A stretch of 64,000 nucleotides of DNA from contig BCIN01000002.1 in NCBI GenBank assembly GCA_039545335.1, positions 881,118 through 945,117 on the forward strand. The letters are read 5' to 3'. The notes beneath the pieces were generated by a model that was not told where the DNA came from, made no database searches, and worked only from the letters and a program-made list of their open reading frames with translations. This stretch comes from Kondoa subrosea (Eukaryota). Position 1 is the first letter of the stretch. Every line of letters begins with the position of its first letter. Positions 8,910 through 63,300 of the stretch are shown here, in pieces. Made by a program: the position numbers and the translations under genes.

Positions 8910-11900
8910 ATGGCTCACTACGATGTACTCGCAATGGGTCATCCTATACCCCGACTGACTATTCCCACTAGCAATTCCATAACAAAAGAGGAGAAGACGA
9001 CCACATCACCAGATTCTTCAAGGCTGGCCAGAGCCAAAGAAGCTATCTCAAATCGACTTGACAAGCCCTTACGGAGTGCGCATCGAAAAGATAGCAGTAG
9101 CGTGAGTCTCTGTGTCTGGAAATAGAAGTCTGAAACTAAAATCAGGTTCCGACCTCATGTGCAGGGCTCTTCGTTACAGGGACTCGCAGTAGCAGGTCTC
9201 GGTCTAGCATTGCCTCCAGATATGCCGCCAGCGTCTTCTACAGAGCCCACCCAAGTGCCGAATGGTGTCTCGTTACTTGCGACATTGGATGGAGAGCAGT
9301 TATGCCGTGTCGATATTTCTGGTGCAACAGATACTCGAATGGTCAAAGAACTAATCTACACAAGATTGCATATTATGGACGAAGATCATGCGCATTGTAC
9401 TGTTCACAAAGGTCATTTCAATCAAGTTGTTGAAGGTCCTGCTTTACCGGAATCCGAACTTTGGGATATTTGCCTATCTGCTGCAACTCAATCAAGTCCA
9501 CCTATCTTACTCGTTCGGATTGGTGGACCAATCAAAGGTTATGCCGCTCCTCTCCTATCTCCAAATGCACCAGCTGCTCTATCTCCTTCATTAGCCAAGA
9601 AATCAACGGAATCAACTCCTAGACCAGCTTCCTCATCTTCTCTATCAGAAGAATTAGTTGGCGGCTTCTTTCTTTCGGAAAACAGAGTTGCTCCAATAGA
9701 AGAAACAGATGAATCTTTGCGAAGTATAAAACCTCAATGGCATAAAGCTAGAACCTCAGATCCTTCTTCTTCTATGAAACGTCCTCAAGGTCTTATGAGT
9801 TCGAATGAATCTACTAGACAACCTGTTTCCTCACCTGAAAGACATATTGCTGATCGAACTTCTTCCGGATCAAGTACTAGAGGTTGGACTGGTGCTATGC
9901 CTGATGAAAGAAGGAGAACGAGTGCTACAAGCGATGACATGAATAGAAGAGATTTGAGAGAATTAGAATTGAGGAATAGAAGGCGACAAGAAGCTGAAGC
10001 CGCTCAACAGTTTCAACAACAACAAATGCAGAGGGATTTGGATCGACAAAGACAGAGAGAAGCTGAAGCTCAATACCAAGCACCCAGAATCAGAAGAACA
10101 AGCTTGGAAGATGTTCCAGATCGTGAACAGCAGTATATGAGAGAGATGGGTCATCCGAGAAGTCGATCTCATGCGCCAAATACAAGATCGGCGTCGGAAC
10201 AAGCTGTTGGGTTTGGTCCTTCTGGTCCTTACTATTCTGCTGGAGCTGCAACTATGCCGGGCCGATCCCAACCTGGTTTCAATACTTATTCTTCAAATCA
10301 GAATAGACCACCTCTGCCTCTTGGGTTTGGGCCATCTGGTCCGAATGCTGGTCCTTCACGACAAGCTCCTCCGCCTTTTGCAGGTCGAGTCCTGCCTCCA
10401 ACTTTCAATTTACCTCCTCCTGGCGCTTTCTCTCCGCAATTACATGCTACTCACCCACCTCGTGCAACACATATCACTAATGCCAAGTCCATGGATGATC
10501 TTCGACGAGTCGGTCGCAGCGTGCCGCCTCCCCTTCCTGCCAATCGATATGCTACACCTGAACCTGGTATGGACAGACGAAATATGAACCGATCGAATGG
10601 GCCTCAACTACCTCCTCGGCCTCCTCAACAACAGCAAAATCAGCATTCTGATTTCCAGGGTATCCAGCAATGGCGAGATCAAGCTGCCAGAGGGGAAAGA
10701 GAGCACTACGCAGTTGGATCTGGTTTACATCCTTCGGGTGCTCAACTGATGCGATTCAACCATAGCTCACAAGGAGTTATACGGAATCAGCGAATCGTTT
10801 CGCCTGAACAGCTTCGTCCTCAGACAGCCCCTCTTTCTCAAATAGATCGATTTGGCGGGCCTCAAGAGGAACATCACCGTTGGCGCATACCAACTACTCA
10901 AAGTATGGGACCTCCTTCTGCTCAGATTGATCTTGGTCAGCGACTTCAACTTCAGCCTGGCGGTCTGCTGCAAACTTCCATGAGACCACCTGCAGCAGAA
11001 CGCATCATGACTTCGCCCGAGTTGATTGAGAAAGGCAAACCTCGGAATCAGTTCATGAGCGCTCGAGATCCTTCTCTGTCCATTCCGAAAGAACAGCACG
11101 TACGAAATTATGATGTTGGGACAAGTGTTCCTGTCTTGCCAAACCACGAACGATCAGCTCAGCACCATACAGCTGCCAGACGCAGTGAGACTTCACCCGT
11201 CCAAGCACCTGTTCGTCCAGAGGTACAACACAGTCGATCGGCTCCCATTGGTCGAATGACACCCGCCGACGATTCAGCTGACGAAGACGCTTATGGTGGA
11301 ATGGACGACAGCAGCAGTTCTAGTCATAATTGCTCGAGCACACCTCATTCTGCTTCAAGTAGTAGTCCAATAACACCTGCCGAATCTACTTCTCCTGTAT
11401 CTGAGAGCGCGCCTCCTCCGCGCAGATCTCTCTTACCTTCTCCTACTGCACCTGTACTATGGGAAGATGACATATTTGACGCGACAAATTCCGCAGAGAG
11501 TACGCTTGTGCCGAAGTTGCCTGAGCTGAATGGTGTAGCGCAAACAAACGAGTGGGATGATATCGTTAGCCGCATCAGAACAAGTCAGCCGAACGATGAA
11601 GGGACCCTCAAAGGTCCGACTCTCGCTCCGTCGAAAATACTTGCTCAGGAATTGGACGTGGATCATCCTGCAGTACCGACTTTAAGCAATCACTTTGCTT
11701 CCTTTTCTGACGATGATGATTCGGACGATGGTGGAGGTGATACTTGGGCCAAACCGCTTGATCCAGTTGCGGCAACGTTGGTGAGGCAATCTTCTTCAAA
11801 ATCGTCAAAAGCTCTATCTCCTACAACACCTTCTCGCTCAACACCGAAACCAGCTCTTCGGATCAAAACAGGCGAAGAACCTCTTTCTCCCACAACAAAT

Positions 11901-13581
11901 ACTAGCGCTGCCTCATCTACAACTGCTGAACCCTCAAAACCTTTCGACAGCGAATCAGAAGACAAGTGGGCAGTTCGTCCGTCTGTAGAACATGTTTACG
12001 AGGACCTCGAACGCTTCTTTCCCGATCACGATCTTGATAAACCTATTGTCGATGCGCCTACTTCCCCAGGCCAAACTTCTCCATCTCAGCAAATGACTAA
12101 TCTGGATACAGAGGCCGCTCCGTTACTATCGCAAAAGCTTCGCCCCAAGAAATCTATCCGAGTAGTCGCCCAAGATCGCAAGAAGATATTACAAAAGAGT
12201 AATGGCACGTTCTCAAAGTCTAGCTCTTTGTCTACTTTGGCTGCTGGTTTGCTGCGCCGCAAGAGTACCAAATTATGGGGCAGCAGATTGGAAGAAGTCA
12301 CTCCTTCAAAAGGCAAACGCGCTTTACCACCTGTCAAAGAGGATACTTCAGACCCTCAAACTGGTATGTCTTGCTTTTAGGTATATTGATCAAGCTGACT
12401 TCGGCGATAGCATCCATTAAATGGGTCAAGGGTGAGCTGATCGGTAAAGGTAGTTATGGCAAAGTAAGTCTCAATTGACATCACTATCTGGCTGCTCTCA
12501 TACCGCTTTCCAGGTCTATCTCGCGCTCAATGTCAACTCTGGAGAAATGCTCGCGGTCAAGCAAGTCGAAATGCCTCAGACTAGAAGCGACAAAGACAAC
12601 GAACTTCAAAGTAGCGTTGTTGCTGCTCTGCGTTTCGAAATTGAGACGCTCAAGGATCTCGATCACCCCCATATCGTTCAATTCCTCGGTCAAGAACAGA
12701 CTACCCAATTTCTCTCCATTTTCCTCGAATACGTAAGTATAGGTTGTATCTTGCGGCCGACTCAATAACTGATAATCGATTCTAGGTTCCTGGTGGAAGT
12801 GTTGGTCGATGTATCCGAAAGCATGGAAAATTCGAAAAACCTGTCGTACAATATTTCACCGTTCAGATACTTGCTGGTCTATCCTATCTGCACAGTAAAG
12901 GTGTCCTGCATCGTGATCTGAAAGCAGACAATATTCTTGTCGACCTTGATGGGAACTGCAAGATTTCGGATTTCGGTATCAGCAAGAGAAGCGATGACAT
13001 TTATAGCGATAAACCTGAAATGTCTATGCAAGGAAGTGTCTTCTGGAGTGAGTCTTCTTGCATCTGCGAACAGATGTGACGGATGACTGAAGCGCGCTGT
13101 TCACCAGTGGCACCCGAAGTCATTCATAATGGCAAACGAGGTTATTCAGCAAAAGTCGATATATGGTCGCTCGGATGTGTAGCACTCGAGATGATTGGCG
13201 GCAAAAGACCATGGAACAATGAACAGCTCGTTCAAGCTCTTTTCAAGGTCAGCTTATTGATCGAACTCGCTTGATATGAGAGATGCTAATATGCCTTACT
13301 CAGCTTGGTGCTGAGAAGCTTGCTCCTCCTATACCTCAAGATGCGGAGCTATGTGCAGAAGGACGCGATTTTCTGGAACACTGCTTTACGGTGTAAGTTC
13401 ATCACTTTGATTTACGGGATAGCTTGACTCGACTCATCATTCTTTCGCATGCAGAAATCCTGAAGATAGACCGACAGCGGAAATGCTGCTCTGTCATCCC
13501 TACATGCTGCGCGATGAGAATTGGAAGTTCAGTCAATCGTCGCTTGCCAAAGCACTTTCTTCCAAAAGAAGAAGAGGTTGA
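8910..13581 (+). CDS. BCK1: MAP kinase kinase kinase, Bck1/Mkh1 type
   Basis: Long low-complexity N-terminus; [26 protein letters not shown] and RRKSTKLWG motifs; kinase [52 protein letters not shown] 13579-13581. Confidence 0.92.
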
Positions 13582-17318: not shown

Positions 17319-19484
17319 TTAGTATTTCTCTTGTCCTAGATCATCTTTGCTGTCAGATAACGCTTCCTTGTGCATTGGTTCGCCTAAAGTGTAGGTCGAT
17401 GCTGATCGGTCGATCTTGGGCAGAGGATGCTCAGAAAGAGAAATCTGAGAGAAAGCCGAGAATTTGCGATCCCCACCAGGTTCTGATCCTCGTCGAGACT
17501 CTTCGTCTGAGGTCCAGTCTGAGAAACGGCTTGAAGGCACAACTCCGTGAGGTAGTGAATCGGATGACTATGGTCGCGAAGTGCCGAATTTGAACGAGGA
17601 AGAATTGTCGATTATGCTAGACAAGACGAGCACGAATGTCAGCAAATAGAACACCTACCTGCAATTAACAAACTCATACATTGGAATCGGCGTTTCGATA
17701 TCTATCGAGGAGTTAACCGTGTCTGTCCAACCATCATAGCTCGAAGTAAAGCTATGCATAGGTAAAGGATCGTGTTGATCTACCGCATGCGTACTTGAGT
17801 AATTGGGCGATTTTCGATACATTGAGTTTTCATGAATAGGTGAGAGTCGAGACCCTAATTGGGCAGACCTTGGCATGGGAAGTGAAAGAGTGTGTCTTGG
17901 AGTTTTAGTGATGTGAAGTGTTGCTGTCTGAGAACGCTGGGAATCGAGTTGCATTGAAGAGTTGGGTACGAACTCGCGACCAGCGATTCGAATGCTCCCA
18001 GATTTGTTGCCTGTGTCGAAGTGCGAAGTAGTATCTAATGAACGAGAGCCTGCTCGAGGTTGGGCTGTCGAGACATCAGCAACGGGAAGACAAGAATATG
18101 TTGGACGACTCACTGACGGCAATCAAGAAGGATGATGCATACTGCGGAATGCGGCAAATTGAGAAGATGTCAAGTCAAAAATCTTGACATACAATCTTAG
18201 GTAACACAAGGACCACTGTTATTAGAAAGCGAACCTTAGGCCGCAACATCGAGACTGCTGTGTTTAGGCTTACTCGAGTAGACTGCCGTTGATCGGGGAT
18301 AATGATGACACCAGATAGAAAGAGTGATCAGTTGTAAGATAGAAACGAATCCGCCCTGTTGAAATTAGCCAGTCCAGTAGGTTTCTCTGGATGACAAAGT
18401 CAACGTACTGTTCCGATGAAGATAGCAAGATACGAAGTGAGGAGTCTCTGTAGTCCTGAAGGTCGTCTTCTTGTTGAATTTCCACGATGTCGTACAAGAC
18501 AAGCCATCAAGATGCTCGATAAAGACAAATCGACAAAGGTGGAAGAAGCCAGATGAATAGGTGTAGAGTACTAACAAGCCTTTAGCTGATGTCCAAGGCT
18601 CAAGTTAATGAGCTCACCCAGTAAAGATTAGTCTCAAGATTTTTGTCTGCCAATTTCGCCAAGCTGCCAATCAGGTAGACCTCGCTAAGAAATAGATCAG
18701 CGAACTTCTCATCCACTTTGAATAGTGAGACTGACAGAGACAGGATACATCCGGTAGTGACAGCAAGTAATATAGCCAGCGCAATTACAGTAGCGACACA
18801 TAAGCGGATGAATCGCTTTCCTCTCGTTCGTTCTGCTTGTTTTCCCAGTTGCGATAAAGTCCATGCATTGTAGGCTAAGTATAATTGACATTGCGATTGT
18901 AATAGACATCCAACGAAAGGTGCAGCTGCATCTTCCTCCCTGGGTTTGATGTAATAGAGGAAATCTCCATAATGAATAGCTGCAAGACAGGTCAGACTTC
19001 TTGATGTATCACAGACAGTTAAAACTTGCCAAAGATCTTGATAGCTCGACCTAGATCGAATGCTGTTTGACCACTGGCGATTAAGCATACACCGAAGCTG
19101 TGACAACCAGTCAATCAATAAAGTGATAGACCATCTCTGATTGGGCATCTAGCGCACATGAGGATCTTCATCTTCCTAAATCGCTTTTCTGGGAACAGCA
19201 TGAAGTAGCGTGCCGCTTGTAGCAGGATAATGCCATTGAGGATGCTAGAAACGACGAGTCTGTATTGCATTCAGCTAGCGTCGGTGATTCATGATACCAG
19301 ACAGACCCAACAACTATGCTTGACCAGGTCAGAGATCGAATTGTACTCGCGATTTGTACACTCACTATATGGAGTGTAGACAGCAGGGCAACCGATCTCT
19401 GAGCAAAGCGCCTTCATAGCTTTGGATAGCTGCTCCAGCATAGGACGAATCGCTGGGTCCTGCGTTATATCATTGGAAGGCATG
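17319..19484 (-). CDS. Multi-pass membrane protein with Ser-rich C-terminal tail (possibly DUF6534-like)
   Basis: Spliced IVGSVCILNGIILLQAARYFMLFPEK and several hydrophobic exons (LCVATVIALAILLAVTTGCILSL); low-complexity tail. Exon chain only partly resolved. Confidence 0.55.
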
Positions 19485-21099: not shown

Positions 21100-23928
21100 T
21101 CATACATCGCTTCCTTCCGTTCTGAATGTTTGAGAGTATGCAAAGTATGCTCTGGGTGTATTAATCAGCTTAAAAGTACAATCAATCTTCCAAAAAATGT
21201 CAACGCACTGCATGATTTTGAGCACCTGATCCGGCAGGCGCATGCTGACTAAGGAGTAAGAGACTTTCGATATTCCTTCCTTTTGTATGAGGCGGAAGAT
21301 TTGATGGCCGACTGCGCTTGGGAACTGTAGGTTTCAGAGAATACGCACATCAGATCATGTCTGACAGGTTAACCGCGAAACCTACAGAGCTCTCATGATA
21401 CCATCGATGATTGTATGTCGCGATCCGTGTTGCCGCGTTGAGTGCTCGAGGAATATCTTTCTCGTCCACGTACATTGTGAGTAATTCTAACCAGGCTTTC
21501 GCAGAGAATTTCTGGTCGAGCGATCGCTGATATGCTTCTTTCGCCTGTAAATTTGGTTTAACGAATGTATATAAGAAATAGTGATATGGCCTACTTCTTC
21601 TTTTCGATGCAGCCGTAGCGCGAGATCACCTAATATTTCCCACTCTGTTGCTGTCTTTCGATATGGCATATGCTGAGCTTTGAAGTGTGCCATTTCGGCT
21701 CTCCACACAGTCAATACTCGTAGATCTGTCCAGCACAGCTTGACAAATGAGCTTCATACTCATGCGTCAACCTCTCACGGACCTTCATACAGAACCATGA
21801 AAAGGTTATCTAGCCATCTCTCGCACAAGCGCTTAGTGCTGAAGCTTAGGTTCGACATTCCATTCTGTAGCTTTTCTTGTTCCGATTCTTGATTAGCCGA
21901 AGACGAAGCAGAAACAGGTTTCTCCAAACCAGGCGCATCCGACTGCAAATCGCTCTTGATATCTCCTTCTTCTTCCTCTTCCAATGCTTCATTCAGATCT
22001 TCAGTTGAGATGCCTAACCCATCACCTGTTTCGTCTTGCGATAGAATTCCAGCTTTAGCTAATCGTTCCCTTTCGCCATCCGATTCGGAAGAAACTTTGA
22101 TAGTAGGTATGGGACTTGAAGGAACAGACATTCTCCCTCTATCCGTTTCTGATGTTATAGGCTGTTCATGTATAGCAGTAGTACTAGCCGTTTCATCCGC
22201 TGACGATTCCGTTTGCGTACTATTTTGAGTAGTTGCACTTTCAGGTAAACCACTTGCTCCTCCTTGATCTTCACTTCCTCCTAATCCGGTCGTTGTTGTT
22301 GTTTCTTCGGATTTTTGCATTCGATATTCTTCTTCCATTACAAACACTTGACTTCTCGCTTTCAGTAATTCATCCCAACCAATCACGCTGACTAGTTTAG
22401 TTAGCAACCGATAAGCTTCTTTGAATGTTCCTCGTAATGAAGGAGCAGGTAATCGTAAAAGAGTAGGATCGGCTAGGTTTTCTTCTTCCGCATCTTGAGA
22501 AGCGTTGGCATTGGTAGGTGGATCCAAGATACCAGAATCGGTGATGAATTGTTTGATGGGCAAATGAGTTCGGGCAGGAGTAGGCATGCGATGTAGATCT
22601 CTCTCGTTGAAGGTGAACATTGGGCATCTATAAATAATTTTGGATCAACAACTGTCTGCCTTATAGCATAATGTGGCAGCTCACGAGTTAAGGGTAAGAA
22701 GAGCTTGGTTCCAGTTCTGAAGATCGATATTGACTTCAGTCAATTTGGCCCAAGTGACGAATTCTGAAGGTGCGCAATTGACTGCCGATTTGGCTAGCTT
22801 GAGTGCCCAGTCGGTCTTGTTCTTATTCCGCAGGAAATCACATTGCACGTGTAGGAGATTGTAAGATTGAGGATGTTCTTTGAGTGCAGTATGTAAAACT
22901 TGGACAGCTTTTACTTCTTCGTCTGATATCACGTCTGAGCTATTGGAAGAATCCATAATTTAAATAACACGCACTCATGCCGACATATGCTTGACCAAGA
23001 AGGGAAGCAACTTCGCTATTCTTGACAACCAGCTTTTCGAAGAGATTCACAGCGGGCTGGAATCTAAAGCTTTCGCCAAAGTACTTTATAATGCCGCTTG
23101 TGAGATGATTGTTGACTATCGATGCGACTTGAATTTCAGGTTCGCTTCCAAGTTGCCAGCCTGTCAAGCAAAAGCAAAGAGTGAATATGGGAAGCCATAT
23201 TGGACCCGCCTTCCTGACCTTGAGCGAAGCATTGTTCTGCAGCAGACAAGAACCTAATCTCATCCTCCAGCGTCTTGATAGGGTCTAGTTTCCGATAACC
23301 CGCTAATCGATATGTCGCATCATCGGCATACAAGATTGCTCGAAGTAAAGCCGAAAGATACACTTCAGTCCACAGTCTCGGTGTCAAGGCATGTCTTTCG
23401 TTCCGTTGATCCAGGACATAAGCTTCCACACCACCTGGAATCTTGACTTCTACTCGAATATCCACTCGTGAGAAAGCGTTGAAAGCACAAAAACAAGCAC
23501 GTGAGATCTTCCATTCCGATTTCGCTTTGCCTCCTAGCCAGGTCGACGTGGTCTCAATATTGTAGGTGAGCGAATTGAGGTAAGCTGCTACTGAAGCTGA
23601 ACTTGAGGCATCTACGCCTGATATGTAGTGATACGAGCCAATCTGTACATCCGCAGAGGTCTCAGTAAACGCAATGTACTGGAGCCTACAAGAGCACGCA
23701 CGTCTTTTGAGCCAGATTTCCCTGATTTGATGATATGTACGAGATCAGGCGGACCCAATTCGCGAAATGTTCCTAGCGCATCCGTTCTAGCTTGCAGAGA
23801 TTCTCCAATATCAACCTGTTTATGTCCCATTCATGAGTCTTTGCGTTGACAACCATTTGCATTCGTAGCGCCCGAACCTCGAAGAATTCTGGCACATCTC
23901 GCAGCGTTTGGCTTGTGGACTCTGACAT
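21100..23928 (-). CDS. Exomer cargo adaptor, ChAPs family (Bud7/Bch1/Chs6)
   Basis: FRELGPPDLVH, GVDASSSASVAAYLNSL, CAFNAFSRVDIRVEVKIPGGV, AVNCAPSEF, ALLTLNSCPMF, KRLCERWLDNLFMVLYEDLR, EWEILG. Confidence 0.93.
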
Positions 23929-24490
23929 AGCAAGGGTATACACTGCCGCGTGCTAAATCTGTATTCCGCTCGAGCAGGCTTTGGTCGTCAGAATCAAGCA
24001 GCAACTCGCTTCCTCAGCTACGGCGGCCAATGGAAATTGAACTACTTCTTGTCCACTCAGGAAAGCTCAGTATTGCCTTCTCGAGGCTGTGCTACGGCAC
24101 TTTGAACAAGGCAGTCTAATTTTGCGTGCGATTCGGTGCATATTGTACCACAGAGTATGCGTTTTATTTGGCATGCTTGCGCTCTGTTCTTGCGCGTTGA
24201 GGATTCTTTGATGGTCTACACTGCCACAATCTTTGCTGTATAGCAGTATATCGCATATTCCGTCAGCACTTGTGTTTGCTAAAGAAGCTGCTTCAATGTA
24301 TCATGCTTAAGGCATTCCGTCCTCCCCTTACACTTTCAGGATGTCTTCCTCAGCTACAAGTTACCTTCTTGCCCCTTTGTTATGGGAAGGTTCTGAAACG
24401 CAATCGTCGAACGACTTTCAGATTATCTTGATTCTCCCTCTTCTCCTTGTACCAATATCTTCTTGAATATCTCAACTGGGCATAACAATC

Positions 24491-27354
24491 ATGAATCCAA
24501 CTCACAATCAACCAAGTCCCGGTAAGCAGGCGCCTGAATCTTCCTGCATTGAGTCTGATTTTTTTTGCCTTGTTTCTTCAGCAGCTGGCAATCAGACTTC
24601 AGGAGCAGGTGCTTATCACGTTGTCTCTACTTCTGGGCATCGAACTGGTCCAGTAACTGGTAAGCTACTCATTCGTTCGCCTCTGTATACGTTGAACACC
24701 AGTCGTTGCACCAGGCCAACTCCACGGTCAGGCTCCTGTTGCATCAGGGAGACCTGTAACCCCAGTACCTACCGGGAGACCAGGTAAAAGACTTCTCATC
24801 CCCTTTGTCTGTCATTTTTCTGAATTCAATCTGTTCTTCGACAGTGCCTCGTTCGAGCGCTACCATTCAGCAATATGTGAGCCTTGGTTTCGGTAGCCTC
24901 CAATATATATGCTAACGACAGGATGGCTCTCAGCCCCTATCGGATGCAGAGAAACATGAACTAGACAAGGAGAGAAAATGGCTCAGCGATCGATATCCGT
25001 CCGAACGAGTAGATCAGCAATGCAGTGTCGTCACTATCATCAATCATATTCCAGTCAGGGTAGTCGTTGTCTGTGCAATCATGTATTGGGTAGATCATGC
25101 GCTTACGGTTTCTCAGGATTGCACCGATAAAGGATTGACCGGACTCAAATGTCCATCGACGACCTGTCACGCAGAACATGATACAATGTCTCTTGGTCAC
25201 CACCTGTGGGTCTGCCTTGAAAGCCACGGAACCAAGCCCGACCAAGGCGATTACACCAACATGTCACGGAAACTGGTATGAATGCGTTATTCAGGTCCGC
25301 ACTCACTGATTATATATAACAGTGTATGCACCTGTGGCACGCAAGTTCGTACAACACGCATCGATTCGTCAAAGCAGGGAAACTGGAGGCTCTGGTAAGT
25401 CATTTCCATTAGCTGATCTTCACCTGCTGAAAGATGAAGCATACAGCCTGAACCACACGTGTACGGTCCGACGCCTGCTACACGACAGATCATACACACA
25501 TCTGTGCAAACTGAGGTAACTCATCCTATCGCAGTCCACCTCCGAGCTGACCCGGACCTAGGCCATACCTCCTCATGTGTCTACTTCAGGGAACAATCAC
25601 ATCGCACCTACAGCAAGTCTTGCCCATCCTGCCGTTTCTAGTCCCGTCGGCTCCTCTACTCATGTTGGACCAGTCCCCATTCCCAACACATTTCGAGCAA
25701 TTCTACCTCACGCTATCGGTCCGTCGGTATTTCTCAACAGCCTTGCAACAGAGCAAGCGCATCATGGCGCTGGAACATCTACTACGACAAGTCGTGTCAC
25801 ACTTTTAGCGAACGAGGTCATTGATTTACGGAACGAGAGGAAGGAAATGGTCAAAGCTCATCCAGAGCAGCCGAAAGCTGGCCACAATTATGACATTGTG
25901 ACCTTGCTCAACAAAATTCCGGTATTGATAAATGTCGTCAGCGAGATTTTTCCATACGAAGATCAAGCATTGATATTTTCTTTAGAGTTGCGTTGCTGAA
26001 ACCCGTCCTGCTGTTGGTAGTCGCGTTGGTCAAATCTCTCAAGGCTTCAAGTGTCCTGCCAAATCTTGCACTGCGATCTACAACACACAGGGTCTTTCTC
26101 AGCATCTTTGGCCTTGTCTTTTAAGACATGCTGGACGTGTTCACCAAACAGACTACTCGGAAATGCTTCAAAAATTGGCATATACATTTCGGAATGGTGT
26201 CCTGCTCGTGCTAATTGCAAGGTATAGAACATCCGCATCAAGAATGGTCAGCAATACAATGCGCACTATCTGGTCAGCAGTGGCAGATTGGAGCGTCTAG
26301 TATGTAGACCCAATTTGAGCTTAGCCTGTAACTGACGTAGAATACAGCCCGATGACACTAAAGTTACGCACCTCTCAGCTAATAGCGAGGTCTCTTCGGA
26401 AGATCAGCTATCGGCCGAAAAAGACAGACTAAGCGATCAATACCCTACGCAACAAATAATCGGGCAGCAAAGCAACTTTGTGACTGTGTTGGATACAATC
26501 CCGGTCAGGGTGACACTTGTGAGCCAAGTATCATACCTAGCAGACCGTCGTGTCCATGCCCTGCAGGATTGCGTACGCCTTTTGGTCAACGGCACAGAAC
26601 GATCGGGATTCAGATGCCCCGGAAAGATGTGCGGCAATTCGACTCACCCTGCAATATCAATATGTCGTCATGTTATGTCGTGTCTCTACAATACACACAA
26701 GTACGACAGTGCCGAAAGTTATGCGGCGATGCTCAAAAACTTGGTTAGATTGTAGCTGGCGAACTTTAACTGTGCTGATGATATTCCTAGACCATTTGTA
26801 TCGACGGCAATAAGCCGTACAATGAACACTGGCTGGTGAAAGCGGGCAAGAAACCTGCCTTGTTGAGGAATATCGACATCAGCTTTTGCGCGGGTACTTA
26901 CCCTCATACAGCCTATTCCAGGGCCTTCTACACCTTCTTCGTCTTCCTCCGGTCCTGTACCTGTATGTTCACATTACTGAAGCCTGTCTGCTTGTGTATA
27001 ATTGCAATAGGCATACCAATCTTTTGAATATGATGGCAAGGAGTGGAATATTAAACTGGTACGTTGTTCAGCGGGGCTTTTGATCTCGTTCAAAAATCCT
27101 CGCAGTCATTCAAAAACGGCAATTTCAAATGTCCGCTAAGTAAGACAGAAAAGGACGCCTGTTTCAGCTCTGAAAAGGAGGGCTTTAAGTGGTTGGAATA
27201 CCGTCTGATACAAACCCATATCAAAGCCCATCTGTGGAGAATTCGGAACGAACACGCAGCCACTTACAAAGCAGAGTGGGAGAAATTGGTATGTCGCTTC
27301 CCTCATGCGAAGCCACTCTGAGCGAATGGCTTCCAGCTTCCTCAACCCAAATGA
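24491..27354 (+). CDS. Uncharacterised multi-exon protein with three tandem ~115-aa C2HC zinc-finger-like modules and a divergent fourth finger; may be a decaying gene
   Basis: Hand-spliced exon chain from ATG 24491; fingers CPSTTC-x11-HLWVC, CPAKSC-x11-HLWPC, CPGKMC-x12-HVMSC; 72-nt exons at 25323-25394, 26228-26299 and 26791-26862; lesions near 25985, 26178 and 26863. Confidence 0.75.
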
Positions 27355-28439
27355 AGTAATGGTTTTGTGGAAGCATAAACGGACAATTTCAATTTCCTTA
27401 CTTTTCCTTTCCATGTATAGTAGCATTCTCAAATTCTATATCAGTATTATCATTCTTTTCTTCACTGATCCTTGCAGCTTTTGCGCGCACTGCTGTATGC
27501 CTTCACAACAAAACTTCTATCCGAGATCACACTTCGCTCTGTCTAGACGTTCACCCAGAAGAGTGTGCTGAAAATCGCCTATCGGCCGCATCAGTAGTAA
27601 TGTACAACGCATAGCAAAAAGGTCAGGCGTTTAGTTTTAAGCGAATGAGCGGATTCAACTGTTTGATTAGTCAAGCGAGAAGGGAAAGATTCACCTTTGG
27701 TAGAGTTTTAACGCACGGAAGGCAAATCAAGGAAATTGCAGAGCGGGCTTATCGCAAAATATGGATGAGCCATCGCAAGGGAGTCAACAAGCGCAACAAG
27801 CAGATAAAGGAAGGTAGTCACAGATCAAGACTACCAGTCGCTGTAGAATCCCGGACTGATTGATTTTGCTTCAAGAGAAGATAGCGATACTGCAGACAGA
27901 CAGAAGAAACGAGAGCAAAGACAGTACAGCGATTCCTCAGCCCATGCCGAAGCTGCATCGAATCTGCGTTGTATAGAAATTTGTGAAAAATGACTTGGTG
28001 ATCCTTAAAGATTGCAGATAGACCGAAAGACACGAAGAAGCAGAAGAGAGAAAAGCAACGGCTTATAACCAAGTCCAATCAAATCAGTTCGCAAATTTGG
28101 ATTACTACTGTCAACGTAGATCGACAGCTTCTCTACTGATGGCGTTGAGTCCGTTCTGATGCAAAGCATCCTTCTTGCTGTTCCGGAGCCTTATCGCCTT
28201 CAATCAAAATCGATATCTTGCAGGGCAAAGCTCGAGCTTTCCAAGAGTTTCTTCGCTTACTAGTAAGCACAGCAAGGGTATGCACTGCCGAGGCTTATCT
28301 CTCTGTATTGATCCGCTCAAGCAGTGTTTGGCGGTCAAGAACAACCGAGGTCCTGGCGAGAAGTGCTTCTTTTCTGCTATCAGCGCGCTTCAGCCGAGTC
28401 ACTTATCTCTGTCTTGTGTGCACCAACTCTTCATCTGAC

Positions 28440-29974
28440 ATGCCTGGCCGTCTCAATAATCGGTAATCCTTTGCTTCTATTCTGGCCTCGCTGCTTGCGT
28501 TTTGACTCGTCATTGATAGCGTGGCCTTAATCACTGGTGCTGGCTCAGGCATCGTCAGCGCTCCTTTGAGCTACCTTGATTTCTTTTGATTGGATTGATA
28601 GGGACTGGAAACCTCTTTGCTCTTTGGTCGAGAAGGTGCCAAAGTTGTTGTTGTCGACTTGAACTTGGAAACTGCTACCAAATGCGCTCAACTCGTCAAC
28701 AAACGTTATGGTAGCGGATCTGAAATCGCTGTTCCTGTTCAAGCAGACGTTGCCAAAGAGGATCAGATTGAAGCTGCTGTGAAGAAGGCGGTCGATACTT
28801 TTGGTAGACTAGATATCATGTGTGCGTGAACATGTAGGGTCCTTTCAGTTATAACTGATTTGCTCTTTTACATGACGGCACAGTCAACAACGTAAGCTCA
28901 TCCTTTCGCTCATTCCCGCTTGATCTGGCATTTACAACTGATTGTAGGCTGGTATTATGCATCCTAAAGGTATATTTCTCCTTCTACATCTCTCTTGCAG
29001 TCTCTTACCACATGGTGTCAGACGACAACGCGGAAAACACACCAGAAAGCATCTTTGACCTGACCTATGCGATCAACGTCAAAGGTGTCTGGTATGGCTG
29101 CAAGCACGCAATCAGAGCAATGTTAGCCAACCCAACGGATGAAAGCAAAGGTTTGAGGTCTGGCGGATCGATCATCAACACTGCTTCTTTCGTTGGTCAA
29201 TTAGGAGCGGCTACACCTCAATTGGCTTGTACGTTTCCCCTTATTTCGGCTATTAAGTATCACATCTGATGATGATACGATAGACACTGCCTCAAAAGTA
29301 CACTTTAGTTGCGTTCTGTTTAGTGAGAAAGCTGATTTGAGCCGAAAATAGGGAGCCGTTCTAGCTATGACAAGAGAATTGGCAGCAGTACATGCAAGAG
29401 AAGGTATCAGAGTCAACTCTCTATTACCGTCAGTCTTTCTTTCTCGCCTTTGCCTCCAATCGTGCTGAATAGCTTGTAGTGGTCCACTTCGAACACGTAT
29501 GTCATATATCTACCTAGCTTAACTCAAACTGAAGTTGGTTTGATGACGTACAGCACTACTCATGGATTTCCTCGATACACCAGAGAAGAAAGAAAGACGT
29601 TTGGTACATGTTCCAATGGGAAGATTTGGTGAAGCTATCGAACAAGCTCAAGCAGTCCTGTTCTTGGCTAGTCCTGAGAGTTCTTATGTCACTGTATGTC
29701 AATACTTCCATACGATATGGAGATGGATGCTGATTTGTTGATGGTAGGGAATGGATATGAAAGTGGATGGTGGATTGACCGCTGCTTGTAAGCAACAGGG
29801 ATCAAGTACCAGCTCAATGTAGCTGACCTGATTCTTGATTCTTACAGATGTCGTAAGTGTACTTGTTATTTCTGCGAACCGGACAACTGATACTCAATGC
29901 AGACTCCATTGGGCGAACCTCATGGCATTCCTCCAACCAACCTCTCTGCTGATTCAGCTGAAGGAACTCTTTGA
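28440..29974 (+). CDS. Classical short-chain dehydrogenase/reductase
   Basis: VALITGAGSGIG, FNNAGIMHP, SIINTASFV, catalytic YTASKGAV, DGGLTAAYVTP; many small exons. Confidence 0.93.
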
Positions 29975-33454: not shown

Positions 33455-35220
33455 CTACTTCTTAGCGAAATGAGGTAACATGTACAAAACCACCTTGCCT
33501 TGCTCATTGCCCAAAGCAACATATTCACTCCTCTTGGAAAAGCTAACGCTAGTAACCACACCAAGAGGTGTTTGAGCTGTTGGCCAATTGGAGAAAACAG
33601 TCATGCTAGGCAAATGTACCATCTTGAGTGCGTCTTTCTTCTCGTTTGAAGCTAAAGCTAGAAGCTGAGAATCGTGATTGAAGGTCATTGTCGTTGCAGC
33701 TGTTGTCAAATTGGTAATCGTTTTCAATGGTTGTCTTGTTCTCGGTGCTGATGTAGGAATTGATGAAGTAGCTACTTCGTGCGAATAGATATTGACAATA
33801 CCAGTTGCGGTTCTAAACTTTGCATCAGAGAAGCATCATAAACCAGTATGACGAGGACTTACGAAGCAGCAACATATTCTTCCTTCTTATCGCTTTCTAA
33901 CCCTAATGAACTGAATCCACCTTCATCAATCCATCTACTCAAACATCTTCCCATCCTCACGTCCCAAACATAAACTTGCGAATCTTTGCCCAAAGTCAAG
34001 AGTTCCAATCCACCTTTCGTCCAACACAAGCCTTTAAGCGGACCATTGGCTTTCAAATCGCCTACTACGCTTTGACTACTTTGATCGATAAGATAAACAT
34101 GACCTTGATTCCCAACTGCAGCTAAAACACTACCATCGGGTGAATATTTGTAAGTGGATTGTAAGAGAAAATGATCTTGGCCTAATCGAAGGGAAGAAGG
34201 TGATTTAGTGATTTTGCCAGCTTGGAGATCATAGGTGAGATAAAAAGGTTTATCGTGACCTGTAAGTATGACGGAAGAACCTGATGGATGGAACAAAGCT
34301 GAAGAAATAGGTAATTCTGGTACATGAATAGATTGCAGAAGTGGATTAGTCGTGCCGTTGATTTGAAAGAGACGAAGTCGACGATCTGAAGATGCAGTGA
34401 AGAGAACATCTGCCGAAGGGTGAAATTGAGTTGAGAGAATAGGTGCCTTCGTGAAAGGTTCAGCTTATAAACCAATATAATCAATAGAAGGCTTACTTTG
34501 GTATCTGAATCGTGATTCGCATTACGAACTCGCTCGACATCAAGTAATATAGAAGGCAGAGGTCCAGTTCGGGCTAATTTCTTCAGACCCACAGAAGTAC
34601 TTTGTAGAAGCCTATCTCCATCGTCTTTTTCGTCATCGGGCTGATCTCTCAGTCTTTTCCGAGCGGATGCAGCCCAGGCAGGAGTTCCATTGACTTTCTG
34701 ATAATATGCTCGCAATTTCGCTTCGTATTGAGTGCCATTGATTGTATCTTCTGCAGCAGATGTACGAAGTTTCCGCAACCGTGCATTATCAGCCAAAGAG
34801 ACAGACAGAGCAGCGTCAGCTGGATCGTGCCAAATCGCCTTCTTCTTGGTCGAGGTTATTTCTGACGCTAGCTCTTGCTCTTGGATGTCTTCTGATCCAT
34901 CTTCTCGAGCATCAGGTGCATCAATGAAGAACAGCTAGAGCCAATGTAAGCCTGCGAGAAAAAAAATACTTTGAGAGCTGTCATGAGCTGACCTGCTCAT
35001 CATCTAGGTTATCTAGCTCTGCATCTTCATCAATCACCGCCCGTCCTTTGCCTTTGCCTGATACACCGCTTGGCTGAAGACTGCCAAACAGTTCTGCTTC
35101 CAAGGCTAACTCTTCAGCTGACTTTTCATTCAACCCTGATACAGCTGAGCCCAAAGGTGCGATACCCTCTTTAGGTTGTCGATGCTTCTTCTGCGTCTTG
35201 CCTGTCTTTCGGGAGATCAT
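33455..35220 (-). CDS. UTP18: U3 snoRNA-associated WD40 protein Utp18
   Basis: RLRKLRTSAAEDTINGTQYEAKLR, TPAWA, RLFQINGTTNP, C-terminal VHLPSMTVFSNWPTAQTPLG...GNEQGKV. Confidence 0.93.
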
Positions 35221-56418: not shown

Positions 56419-57920
56419 ATGCCTTCAACTATGATGCCTCGTCCTCGCACTGCCTCCAATGTGGAACGTATGAATGGTACCACACTTGCTTTCACCAACA
56501 GCAAAGGTCTCTGTGGTCTCGGCCTTGGTCTTCCTACTTCAACCTCGACCAATTCACCTGCAACCTTAGCTGCTCCCATCAAAGCACCTCTTCGAGTTCG
56601 TTCAGTGCCATGCATCAAGGTTTCTTATGAAACTATTCTCTTCTCGCCGGAATCATCTATCGAAGACAATGCAATGGAAGCAATCATCTCCAAACCTGCT
56701 GATTTCGATTTCCCCATGCCACCCGCTGCAAAGCAACAGATTCCTTCCATCCGTATGGACATCAGCTATTGGAGCCCTGCCAGTCCTATCATCAGTGAAC
56801 AAGCATCTGATTCCGATTCGTGAGTCTTCTTGCTCCGTCATTTTGAACATTTGCTGACCCGATTGTTAGGCCTGCTTTGAGCACTCCCGAATCTATGGCG
56901 CAATCCACCGAATATTCTCCAGTCCAGAGCTCATCGGTCGAAGCTTCACCAATTGAAAAGCCTTCTCCAGCCTCTGGCAATTTCTCCCTCAACCTTCATC
57001 CTTGTCTACATCTTCTTTCTCCCAAAGCTGAACCTTTGGCAAGAGCGGCATCTCAAGCCGGCATCGATACTTCGTCCGCTCTGGAAGCAGCTCACGAATT
57101 CGGTTGGATCGTTTCAATGGTTGAAGCTGGTTCCGTTTCACAAGATTTACCTACTTCAGTAATCGAATCACCTCTTCCTTCACCAGTTTCAATCATCTCA
57201 ACTGCTTCTGTTGCATCTGTTGCGTCTTCCTCTCCATCAGATCATGACATGTCAAGAACCCAATCCATCATGTCTGCTTTCTCAAACTCTCCCGCTTCGA
57301 CTGCACGAACTTCTATTTCGAGTCAATCAGAAAAGGAAAGCATGGTTTCTCGCAAACGACCTATTCAAACTTCTTCTGCATCAGCAATGAGATTCGGAGG
57401 AGCAAGAGCTGGAGATATGAATCATCAACTCCGGTCAAGAGCTTTAGGAGCAAGAAGAGGTTCTTCAATGACTTTAGCTTCTGCTACTTCTTTTTCTTCT
57501 TTCTCGGAATCAAACAATTCACCTTCTTCTTCTTCTTCCTCATCTTCTTCATCTTCATCTTCACCTGCTCAACAACTTTCAGCTCAATTGAGATCAGTTC
57601 AATCAATGTATCAAATCAGAGAAGAAGGTACAACTACACTCGCAACGATCAAAATTAAGAAATCTTCACCTACTCTTTCATCTACCAAAACGGGTACAAC
57701 AAGACAAGATTTACTTCGTTTATGGGCAGAAGCAGAACAGTCTTCTTCAGTACAACCTCAATTGAAAGGGAAGAAATCGTTTGGTGTACTGAAATGGTTG
57801 GGTGGTTTGAAAAAGGAGAAATCTTCGCAACCTCAAATTACTTCAGCGATGAAAGAAGTGAAAGAACCTAGTGTGAAGAGAACTAGATCGATTGAAAATA
57901 TGTTGATGCAGAAGAATTGA
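56419..57920 (+). CDS. Ser/Pro-rich low-complexity hypothetical protein
   Basis: Two long ORFs joined by one ~50-nt intron (about 56820-56869); poly-Ser run; no recognised domain. Confidence 0.7.
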
Positions 57921-60314: not shown

Positions 60315-63300
60315 TTAGACTTGTCGAGGTTGTTCTAATTTCCTTTGTACTAATGCTAAAGCGTGATCTACCACCTTCATACCAGCCACATCTTTGGCTG
60401 CATTGGCTCGAAGGATTGCTTTCGAACAGAGTCAGCTCACTCCGTACTCATGAAATTGAGACACTCACTGCCATTCAGAGCTCGGTAGGCTATCTGAAGT
60501 ATTCTTGGAATGTATTCCCTTGTTGCATAATCCGCGTCTTGCAGGAAATTAGCATGACGGATTGCGGGCAAAAGGAGAGACTCACAATCCAAATGCATAA
60601 CACAAGCAACGAACCATCTTAGATATGTCATCTCTCTTGGATCAAGAGGTCCTTGTCTAAGAGGTAAGTTATCCACCAAGCGATGTGCCAAAGAAAGGAG
60701 TACAGTTTGCGATACGACTGGTTTGCCTTCTCTATCTCTGGCGAAAATTGCATCCATTCGATAAGGAGGAGCTTCATGAGTGAATTGAGCTAAATCGTTT
60801 GGGTTAGTTGAAGAAAGGATCATGAGCAGGATATCTTCATATTGAGCGGGAGGAGTCCTAGATCGCTCAGGAACAGGTGCTGCATCGCTATTGTAGATTT
60901 CTCTTTGTGAGGGCAAAGCTTCAACAGCTACTGTAGGACTTGGTTGTAGAGATTGGATTTGCAGTTGAGCGACAGCAGAAGAAAGGTTTCGCATCTCTAC
61001 CGCTAAAGCAGTCAATGCGCCATGATTTTCGCCAACTAGTTCTTTGCGAATGGATACCATTTCTTTTTGCATCTCTCGAGACATGTGATCCATCAATTGC
61101 TTCGTTGAATGTTGCATAGCGGCATGGATCGACTTTTCGATGAGCGGGCCTGTTGTATCGGTCAAAGCTGCCGCGAGAGCATTAACATTCTCATCGTCTG
61201 CTAGAAGAACAGCAATTGCGTCAGGAAGTGCCTGTGAGAGTACGAATCAGATTAAGAACCCTTACAGTCCAAATGATGCAAGCTCACCTTCTGCAAAGAC
61301 TGCCGAACTGCATCGCCAATCTCCTCATTGATCGATTCGCGCATGATTTTAGTGATTGAGGGAATCAACACATCGCGCACTGTGACTAGTATTAGCCAAG
61401 CTGTGTGCCTAGTCTAGCATCACTTACTTTCGCTCTTGACGGACTGCTCGAGCGTCTTGTTGGTCTGAGTTCCGAGTGTCTTGCTGACACTGTCAGAGAA
61501 GTCTCTGCATAAGCTTAAATCGAGCCAATGCAGATGATCACTGACAGTGCAAGAAGGTTCTCCTGTCTTGAGATTTCGCCCACACTTTGTTGAGCGATCG
61601 CCTTTTGTAGTGTATTGCCTATCGATGATTAGTTCAGGTTCTAGCAACGAAGGAATAGCTCACTTTGTTCTGTTATCTGAGAGGTAACCAACCCTGACAA
61701 GCTCGATTCGAGAGCCTTCAACTTAGCCTCAAGATCTACCTGAGGTGTTACTGGAGCAGGTTTCTCTTTCTTTACACTCTCCGCAGTGAGTACAGGAACT
61801 TCAGTGGTCTGAGCTGCCTCTTGCTCCCTCTTAGCTTCTTCGGCTTTCGCAGCCTTCTTCTTGCTCTTCTTTGAAACGGTCAGCGTAGGATCTTCATGAT
61901 CGCTAGCCGTAGCCGTCTCCTTCTCTACTAAAATTCGATCTTTCAAGTCAATCTTGGGACTTTCTTCTTTCGTTGCTTCCGCTTTGACTTCAACTTGACT
62001 TTCCCTTTCCGCTTCTTGGACCATAGTCTTGATTAATGAAGAAGGCAGATGTAGTTCTGATATTCCATCCAAAGTCATACAGAACAAACTCGGTTCTGCA
62101 TGTCGCAGTGAAGCAGCAAAAGAAACGACTTGTTTTGGTGCTGGAATCTCAAGAATTCGATCTATCCGAGGAAGGAGAGCAGTCGTATCTGGTTGTTCCG
62201 CTTTAGATCCCAAGTATGTTTTGACGTATTCAAGAGCTGAAGTGGAAGTAGCTTTTGCAACTGGAGAAGTGACTGGCTGAGGTAAAGAAATATGCAGCGC
62301 AAATATAGATCCACGCAGAGTGTTGCTCCAAAGAAGAAGCTGTGAGGCGGCGTCATACGAGAGGAAGTTGTAGCATACTTCAACTGGTTCTCTAGCTGGT
62401 CGAACCAATTCAGAATGAGATAAGAGTCTACCGGAAAGAGAGAAGATATTGATCTTGGTAGCTGAATCGTAAGCTACTGCTAAACCAGCTGGATGACCTT
62501 CTTTATCACTCAACAATACAATCTTGGCATTGAATTTTTCGCTTGAAGGCTCAAGGCAGAAGAAGGAAGAGATTTCCGACAAGTCAGATCCAGATAGTAG
62601 ACGCAAGCGGCCATTATCCAACACAGCCAGAAGTGATGCATCTTCCGAGATGGCGAAATCGGAAGAATCGGATTGCGAAATGTTAGCTGGGTTCTTTGAG
62701 CTTGTCAGCTGCTTCTTCGCAATCCAGCAGCCTGAAGAGTATCCTTGATCGACTTGCATAGGGCTGCTCGCCTGTTGTGGGATTTTGCTGTAGTCGAAAG
62801 CGAGAAGATAACCATCAGTTGCAGCAAAGAAGATCTTGTCATTGTTTTGCGGATCAAAATGAACTGAATAGAGGAGCTTTTCTGGGTAGCCAGCATCTGA
62901 ATCCAATGACTGCCAAGGCAAATTCATCTGCAACAGCATTTTATGCCTGTACCTCAAGAAATTCGTTAGCGTATTATTCGCAGATAAATTAACGTACGCA
63001 CGGAGGATGATCTCTTTGGAATTCAGGTGGGAATTTCCAAAGTATGCAACTCCCATCGAGCGAAACAGAACACAATCGAACTTGACCATCTTGCGTCTTA
63101 ATTTGGCCGAACTCCATATCCAGAACAGCAGCTTGATGACCTTTCAATAACAACCTCGCACCAGAATTTCGATCCAAAACTCTAATGCTTCCTCTTTTCG
63201 TTGCATAAGCAATCAAGTTCTCCCTTACTGCGACTCTGCGTCCAGTTTGATACGCATTGAGTGTTTCAAAGAGAGTGACAGGCGTGATCTTGAGGTCTTC

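Follow-up and report, generated by a model that had tools for sequence, protein, structure and literature searches.

The window analysed here is a stretch of 64,000 nucleotides (nt) from contig BCIN01000002.1 of Kondoa subrosea (assembly GCA_039545335.1, positions 881,118 to 945,117 of the forward strand), and all coordinates below refer to it. At 24491-27354 on the forward strand lies a predicted gene whose protein carries three paralogous modules, each containing a C2HC zinc finger. The gene model was built by hand from the sequence of the window alone and was checked by script. It has 18 exons and 660 codons, with an ATG at 24491 and a TGA at 27352-27354, and no stop codon or frameshift is found inside any of the exons. 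The 17 introns are 45-64 nt each; all of them have AG acceptors, and 15 have GT donors. A preliminary description of the locus had given the gene as 24922..26862. This interval does contain the modules, but the gene starts upstream at the ATG, and its 3' end is probably at 27354. A protein of about 560-660 amino acids (aa) is predicted. The parts of the model are as follows.

24491-24521, 24582-24659, 24715-24783 and 24845-24876, + strand: four small 5' exons (hand model)
24922..25059, + strand: module 1, N-part exon, …LDKERKWLSDRYP…VVTIINHIPVR (translation)
25060..25116, + strand: module 1, 57-nt segment, intron or coding; in frame, stop-free, donor GTAGTC
25117..25275, + strand: module 1, finger exon, DC…LKCPSTTC-x11-HLWVC…YTNMSRKL (finger profile E 7.8e-29)
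25323..25394, + strand: module 1, 72-nt exon, CMHLWHASSYNTHRFVKAGKLEAL (…YNTHRFVKAGKLEAL), donor GTAAGT (translation)
25447..25801, + strand: linker, exon 25447-25515 and the start of exon 25562-25921 (about 103 aa by arithmetic)
25802..25921, + strand: module 2, N-part, …LRNERKEMVKAHP…IVTLLNKIP (translation)
25922..25985, + strand: module 2, 64-nt intron, donor GTATTG; removal needed to keep the frame
25986..26177, + strand: module 2, finger exon, SC…FKCPAKSC-x11-HLWPC…YSEMLQKL, followed by a GC donor, GCATAT (translation, profile match)
26228..26299, + strand: module 2, 72-nt exon, NIRIKNGQQYNAHYLVSSGRLERL (…YNAHYLVSSGRLERL), donor GTATGT (translation)
26348..26509, + strand: module 3, N-part exon, …LSAEKDRLSDQYP…FVTVLDTIPVR (translation)
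26510..26566, + strand: module 3, 57-nt segment, intron or coding; in frame, stop-free, donor GTGACA
26567..26743, + strand: module 3, finger exon, DC…FRCPGKMC-x12-HVMSC…YAAMLKNL (translation, profile match)
26791..26862, + strand: module 3, 72-nt exon, TICIDGNKPYNEHWLVKAGKKPAL (…YNEHWLVKAGKKPAL), with TTGAGG in place of a GT donor (translation)
26912-26962 (PIPGPSTPSSSSSGPVP), 27011-27058, 27106-27288 and 27337-27354, + strand: tentative 3' exons (hand model)

The modules are encoded by exons 5-7, by the second part of exon 9 together with exons 10 and 11, and by exons 12-14, and the layout is the same in all three: an N-part exon, a finger exon ending in phase 0, an exon of 72 nt and another phase-0 intron; the exon that comes after this intron begins with Pro in each of the three units. 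The strings and coordinates quoted in the preliminary description could all be reproduced from the window, and a C2HC finger, identically placed phase-0 introns and a 72-nt exon are present in every module as it had stated. Its claim of identical intron placement is right for the 72-nt exons, which all have an AG acceptor just before them and are in phase 0, but it does not extend to the first internal junction of module 2, which is shifted 6 nt upstream relative to modules 1 and 3.

Each module is about 120 aa long (three copies in 24922-26862 on the + strand), or 135 aa with the 57-nt segments counted as coding. The N-part consists of a helix-like stretch, L-x2-E-[RK]-[KD]-x-[LM]-x3-[YH]-P, and a hydrophobic strand, V-T-[ILV]-[IL]-[ND]-x-I-P. 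A conserved [DS]-C stands between the N-part and the finger, and the finger itself reads C-P-x3-C-x11/12-H-x3-C-L, the spacing being C-x4-C-x11-H-x3-C in modules 1 and 2 and C-x4-C-x12-H-x3-C in module 3. After each finger follows Y-x-x-M-x-x-(K/N)-L (YTNMSRKL, YSEMLQKL and YAAMLKNL) and then the intron, and the 72-nt exon of all three modules carries YN-x-H-x-x-V-x-x-G-(K/R). Invariant in the alignment of the finger exons are C2, G20, C23, P24, C28, H40, C44, L45, Y57, M60 and L64. Seven potential metal ligands are conserved per module: the Cys of [DS]-C, the three Cys and the His of the finger, a His 4-5 residues past the last Cys, and the His of YN-x-H. The fingers are about 170-300 residues apart, with no short linkers of the TGEKP type between them.

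That the three modules are homologous, as had been proposed, is clear from pairwise Smith-Waterman alignment (BLOSUM62) of the spliced units, which gives scores of 173, 160 and 124 (z = 21-31). The shuffled background has a mean of about 27, a standard deviation of about 4.8 and a maximum of 50-52, and none of 1000 shuffles attains the score of any pair. Tested separately, N-part, finger core and 72-nt exon all reach significance in every one of the three pairs (0 of 2000 shuffles each), while the helix following the finger is significant in one pair only (0, 100 and 1001 of 2000 shuffles). Between the modules the nucleotide identity is 0.47-0.50 at the first codon position, 0.53-0.61 at the second and 0.32-0.36 at the third, and each pair shares 36-40 identical residues, 22-25 of which are written with differing codons. 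Between equivalent introns the similarity of the DNA does not exceed that of shuffled sequence, in agreement with the highly diverged DNA noted earlier. Since identity is highest at the second and lowest at the third codon position, identical residues often have different codons and the introns have diverged, the duplication is old and selection has acted at the protein level, which again upholds the preliminary description. The triplication of the three-exon unit is ancient: at third codon positions the copies are close to random, and purifying selection has kept all three parts of the module and not the finger alone.

The modules seem to be confined to this gene as far as the window is concerned. 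A profile built from them, when searched against 2651 six-frame open reading frames (ORFs) of the window, matches this gene only, and the next best matches have E 0.016-0.04. The one at 18403-18570 (- strand, E 0.016) lacks Cys and was dismissed as noise. Neither tblastn nor two profile searches found a further copy of the module in the 64 kb. The exon at 27106-27288 is finger-like (FKCP…C…H-x5-H) and ends in Y-x-x-E-W-E-K-L followed by a phase-0 intron, as do the finger exons of the modules. As a degenerate fourth module it was rejected: its pairwise scores of 31, 31 and 25 are matched by 128, 89 and 411 of 1000 shuffles, and its profile E-values of 18-25 are insignificant.

The 57-nt segments at 25060-25116 and 26510-26566 are equal in size, free of stops and flanked by the weak donors GTAGTC and GTGACA. 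The in-frame translations of the first internal segments are alike across the three modules (scores attained by 113, 92 and 789 of 5000 shuffles); that of module 1 resembles those of modules 3 and 2 (the 113 and 92 shuffles, respectively), and frame 0/0 is the best of the nine frame combinations in all three module pairs. Left unspliced, module 2 can be read over 25922-25996 and then meets a TGA at 25997-25999. Codon usage gives -3.1 bits for module 1, which is intron-like, and -5.0 and -0.4 bits for the others; this score has no discriminating power, as finger exons are negative as well. Judging from these translations, the segments of modules 1 and 3 may code for protein or have done so in the past, and module 2 may have been rescued by the shifted 64-nt intron.

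The four 5' exons (24491..24876) encode an N-terminus of about 70 aa that is rich in Pro, Gly and Thr, has an isoelectric point (pI) of 11.6 and contains neither Asp nor Glu; the second and third of these exons score +7.6 and +4.9 bits in frame by codon usage. The linker at 25447..25801 is rich in Pro, Ser, Thr and His and, from this composition, is probably disordered, and no Pfam family was found for the exon at 25562-25921. In 13 of the 18 exons the model frame is the top-scoring one by codon usage.

Two donors deviate from GT, GCATAT after the finger exon of module 2 and TTGAGG after the 72-nt exon of module 3. They occur in one and the same gene, and each is a single base off a GT donor. 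If the transcript is not spliced at 26863, the frame enters a hydrophobic tail and reaches a stop at about 27027. In the frame set by splicing, the exon at 26912-26962 scores +10.0 bits, compared to -4.6 and -7.4 in the other two, and a frame-restoring splice near 26863 is therefore to be expected. A canonical donor, GTGAAA at 26836, could substitute; it is in frame and gives an intron of 76 nt, at the cost of the last nine residues of module 3. The branch-site motif CTRAY is lacking in nine of the 17 model introns and is thus useless as a test of the three doubtful ones.

The finger core fits the classical beta-beta-alpha C2H2-type pattern, here [LF]-x-C-x4-C-x3-[HY]-x5/6-[LI]-x2-H-x3-C. Classical C2H2-like fingers have the spacing C-x2-4-C-x12-H-x3-5-[HC]. 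The ligand spacing of the three fingers agrees with this except that the middle spacer is one short of 12 in modules 1 and 2, and the hydrophobic core positions are occupied in all three (L, F and F at Cys-2; L, L and I at His-3). The module thus contains a known type of finger, inside a unit that matches no family in the tools used. TRAF-type and TFIIIA-type fingers also have C-x4-C. The preliminary description compared the spacing to UBZ4 and TRAF-type fingers and pointed to the x4 and the missing Asp; since these other types use C-x4-C as well, the x4 spacing does not in itself set the fingers apart.

Structure prediction with AlphaFold2 (AF2), using alignments from the window only, gave a mean predicted local distance difference test score (pLDDT) of 47.9 for the 118-aa read-through of module 1 and of 64.6 for the 64-aa finger exon of module 2. 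Both low-confidence models have two short strands and a helix across the finger; outside the finger the 118-aa model is poor, with pLDDT below 50 for residues 28-73. A Foldseek search of the 64-aa model against PDB gave no match at E <= 0.001, the best having E 3.3. When the finger exon of module 2 with Zn was modelled in complex with the N-part of the same module, a score of 0.02 was obtained relative to a mark of 0.34, which is no evidence either way. The neighbours of the 48-aa finger core in the ESM Atlas include several C2H2-type clusters; their scores of 0.86-0.89 fall short of the 0.9 mark, so that this is a lead only. For the 118-aa read-through of module 1 the best neighbours were SH3/amidase clusters at 0.79, which were discarded as noise.

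Compared to classical C2H2 fingers of the C-x4-C (TFIIIA-like) subtype the ligand pattern is the same, but the last ligand is a Cys, the fingers stand far apart, each inside a conserved unit of about 120 aa, and no Pfam model of the C2H2 clan matches even at E <= 10. TRAF-type fingers have the consensus C-x2-6-C-x11-12-H-x3-7-[CH], often with C-P-x-x-G-C. This consensus (PF02176) accommodates the C-x4-C-x11/12-H-x3-C of the present gene, but the Pfam model itself is unmatched, scans of the exons revealed neither a RING nor a MATH/TRAF-C domain, and the fingers do not form a tight tandem array. The JAZ and zf-met (U1-like) fingers, which bind double-stranded RNA, have the spacing C-x2-C…H-x5-H. 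They have in common with this gene several fingers joined by long linkers, and some of the ESM Atlas neighbour clusters (scores 0.87-0.88) include zf-met in 11% and zf-C2H2_jaz in 14% of their members; with scores below 0.9 and such low shares this is a lead only, and there is no Pfam match. UBZ4 fingers (Rad18/WRNIP1/SLX4-type) are characterised by a C-x2-C knuckle and by H-L-D-x-C, in which the Asp contacts ubiquitin, and they are found as stand-alone interaction modules within long proteins that are partly disordered. The C2HC ligands and the ending H-[LV]-x-x-C-L are shared with UBZ4, but the knuckle of the present fingers is C-x4-C, the place of the Asp is taken by Trp, Trp and Met (HLWVC, HLWPC and HVMSC), so that they depart from the UBZ4 pattern, and no sequence-level match to UBZ4 was found in this gene. 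According to one paper (PMC3260432), SLX4 carries two N-terminal C2HC (UBZ4) fingers.

No family was found for the exons of the gene in Pfam at or near the gathering score; at E <= 1 only GCM (E 0.11) and AbiEi_4 (E 0.066) appeared, with about 13 bits each against cut-offs of 25. In a second scan, six pieces, namely the three finger cores (29-31 aa), the exon at 27106-27288 and two read-through ORFs, gave no Pfam family at E <= 10. The finger profile had no match among the PDB sequences at E <= 10. The longer module profile had three there, at E 0.78-2.1 and with 2l7x_A ('Envelope glycoprotein') on top, which were set aside as insignificant. A word-indexed search of longer proteins yielded 67 candidates, none at E <= 0.01. 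A HMMER profile searched against 1.84 billion representative proteins gave two matches at E <= 0.001, P0001 and P0002, both rejected as translation artefacts of tandem repeats. This search misses single diverged fingers below about 40 bits, and intron-dense genes are poorly represented among ORF-called proteins. The absence of a relative with several modules is still meaningful, because the scores of such a relative would have summed. The protein collection does include hundreds of basidiomycete proteomes. No description of such a module was found in the literature on C2HC, TRAF-type and UBZ4 fingers and on the spacing C-x4-C-x11/12-H-x3-C, and Rfam had no match over 23500-28500. The earlier statement that the module is unrecognised thus stands with respect to Pfam, PDB sequences, Foldseek and the 1.84 billion representatives. 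Of the suggested lineage-specific domain family the unmatched module is retained; a family goes beyond the three intragenic copies that have been shown.

The remainder of the window encodes proteins with RhoGAP and Ysc84 domains, a metallo-beta-lactamase-fold protein, a PMT protein (MIR and 4TMC), ChAPs, two short-chain dehydrogenases/reductases (SDRs), WD40 and BTB proteins, IMPDH, a Cys/Met pyridoxal phosphate enzyme and TPR proteins. The neighbours are housekeeping genes in an ordinary gene-dense chromosomal stretch; each of the 32 segments of 2 kb has a GC content of 0.43-0.50, ARAGORN found no tRNAs in the window, and Tandem Repeats Finder found no tandem DNA repeats in 24000-28000. Because the neighbours are housekeeping genes, the locus is not the accessory island that had been suggested; nor does the window contain a transposon signature. 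The transposon-protein match that the preliminary description had considered was not found either, as window scans revealed no transposase, reverse transcriptase or integrase domain, no terminal repeats and no further copy of the module.

The ChAPs (Chs5-Arf1-binding) gene on the - strand diverges from the zinc-finger gene on the + strand (23136-24491), and the two share an intergenic region of at most 0.75 kb. On the other side about 1.1 kb (27360-28500) separates the model stop from the next recognisable gene, an SDR from about 28600, and contains only short ORFs (82-105 codons), none with a Pfam match. For an uninterrupted ORF of 1084 codons at 9126-12380 (+) Pfam gave no family at E <= 0.001. 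Among 5.8 billion clusters its closest relative is a single protein with 57% identity, and a second, weak match covers 11% (a kinase-domain protein from Phenoliferia). Other long ORFs for which no Pfam family was found at E <= 0.001 are 34182-34934 (-), 56847-57920 (+), 60437-61246 (-) and 61641-63143 (-), with 250, 357, 269 and 500 codons, respectively. The IMPDH exon matches 7530 proteins at E <= 1e-30, and the best named ones are from basidiomycetes, chiefly Pucciniomycotina, with 84% identity to Rhodotorula, 82% to Mixia and Rhodosporidiobolus, and 81% to Cystobasidium and Microbotryum. Going by these matches, the host of the gene is a basidiomycete, probably of the Pucciniomycotina, with no close relative in the collection.

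The interpretation that we consider reasonably probable is that of a live, selected gene centred on zinc-finger modules, restricted to a basidiomycete lineage (probably Pucciniomycotina) and placed in a housekeeping setting. Several observations weigh against it. In five of the 18 exons the best frame by codon usage is not the model frame; these are short exons, two of the three 72-nt exons among them, and one finger exon, and the negative scores of finger exons amount to -4.4 and -6.2 bits. Two of the 17 donors are non-canonical, those at 26178-26183 and 26863-26868. The AF2 models are too low in confidence to support a fold or a zinc geometry. The restriction to a lineage rests on sparse sampling of predicted proteins only, with the genome itself and its close relatives outside the collection, where the neighbouring 1084-aa ORF finds nothing closer than 57% identity, and the pI values of the modules (6.6, 9.5 and 7.3) give no clear hint of nucleic-acid binding.

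The donors bear on the view that this is a young pseudogene, a triplicated gene that was functional for long and is now decaying through mutations in its splice sites. The single-base departures of GCATAT and TTGAGG from GT would fit such decay, as would the hydrophobic tail that is read when 26863 is left unspliced. It would also agree with the first segment of module 2, which cannot be read through as those of modules 1 and 3 can and has a donor displaced by 6 nt. However, there is no stop or frameshift in the 18 exons, GC-AG introns are a recognised minor class, GTGAAA at 26836 could replace the TT site with the loss of nine residues, and the exon at 26912-26962 retains its +10 bits when read as spliced, so that we regard a pseudogene as improbable. 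A mobile element or a multi-copy family as the source of the modules, the gene being a domesticated or passenger copy, is far more remote, given that no further copy was found within 64 kb, no tandem DNA repeats in 24000-28000, no transposase, reverse transcriptase or integrase domain in the scanned ORFs of the gene and its flanks, and no match in a representative library rich in phages, viruses and transposons.

A different question is how much of the module is more than a finger. There may be only three ordinary fingers of the C2H2 superfamily (UBZ4-, TRAF- or TFIIIA-like), with flanks that look alike as a remnant of the duplication and have no fold or function of their own. The core does match the classical pattern, its language-model neighbours are C2H2-type clusters (0.86-0.89), the post-finger helix is alike in one of three pairs only, and the AF2 confidence is poor at residues 28-73, outside the finger. 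However, the N-part and the 72-nt exon have been kept as well as the finger despite an identity of 0.32-0.36 at third positions, and because they are conserved while third positions are near random, the flanks too are under selection. In addition, no Pfam zinc-finger model was matched even at E <= 10, and the finger profile matched no PDB sequence at that threshold. We find ordinary fingers with inert flanks unlikely, if slightly less so than the pseudogene. The contrasting proposal is that the unit of about 120-135 aa is an undescribed zinc-binding domain whose C2HC beta-beta-alpha core is extended by conserved elements on both sides, a helix-strand at the N-terminus and YN-x-H-x2-V-x2-G-K at the C-terminus. 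Such a domain would occur only in a basidiomycete lineage that has been poorly sampled, and selection would have maintained its three copies. This is a serious candidate, held with somewhat less than even confidence.

If the gene is live and selected, its protein would be a string of probably disordered segments rich in Pro, Ser, Thr and His that bears the three paralogous modules. Each finger would bind one Zn through Cys, Cys, His and Cys, and each module would fold as a single unit. A second or extended metal site may be present, because the seven potential ligands exceed the needs of one classical site. With its low-complexity linkers and its basic, acid-free N-terminus the protein could then act as a multivalent, zinc-stabilised binder or adaptor, the partner being a nucleic acid or a protein such as ubiquitin. 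The modules are not strongly basic and their pI values do not favour the one over the other, and any particular ligand is held with much less confidence than the module gene itself.

The gene bears on no long-standing question, and fungi commonly have orphan genes with repeat modules of their own. It is a clean example of an ancient intragenic triplication of a three-exon unit in which the intron phase has been preserved, and it illustrates that intron-dense genes go unseen in ORF-based protein collections, which matters for the annotation of under-sampled basidiomycetes. Should the module prove to be a self-contained fold, it would add to the lineage-specific elaborations known of the classical zinc finger.

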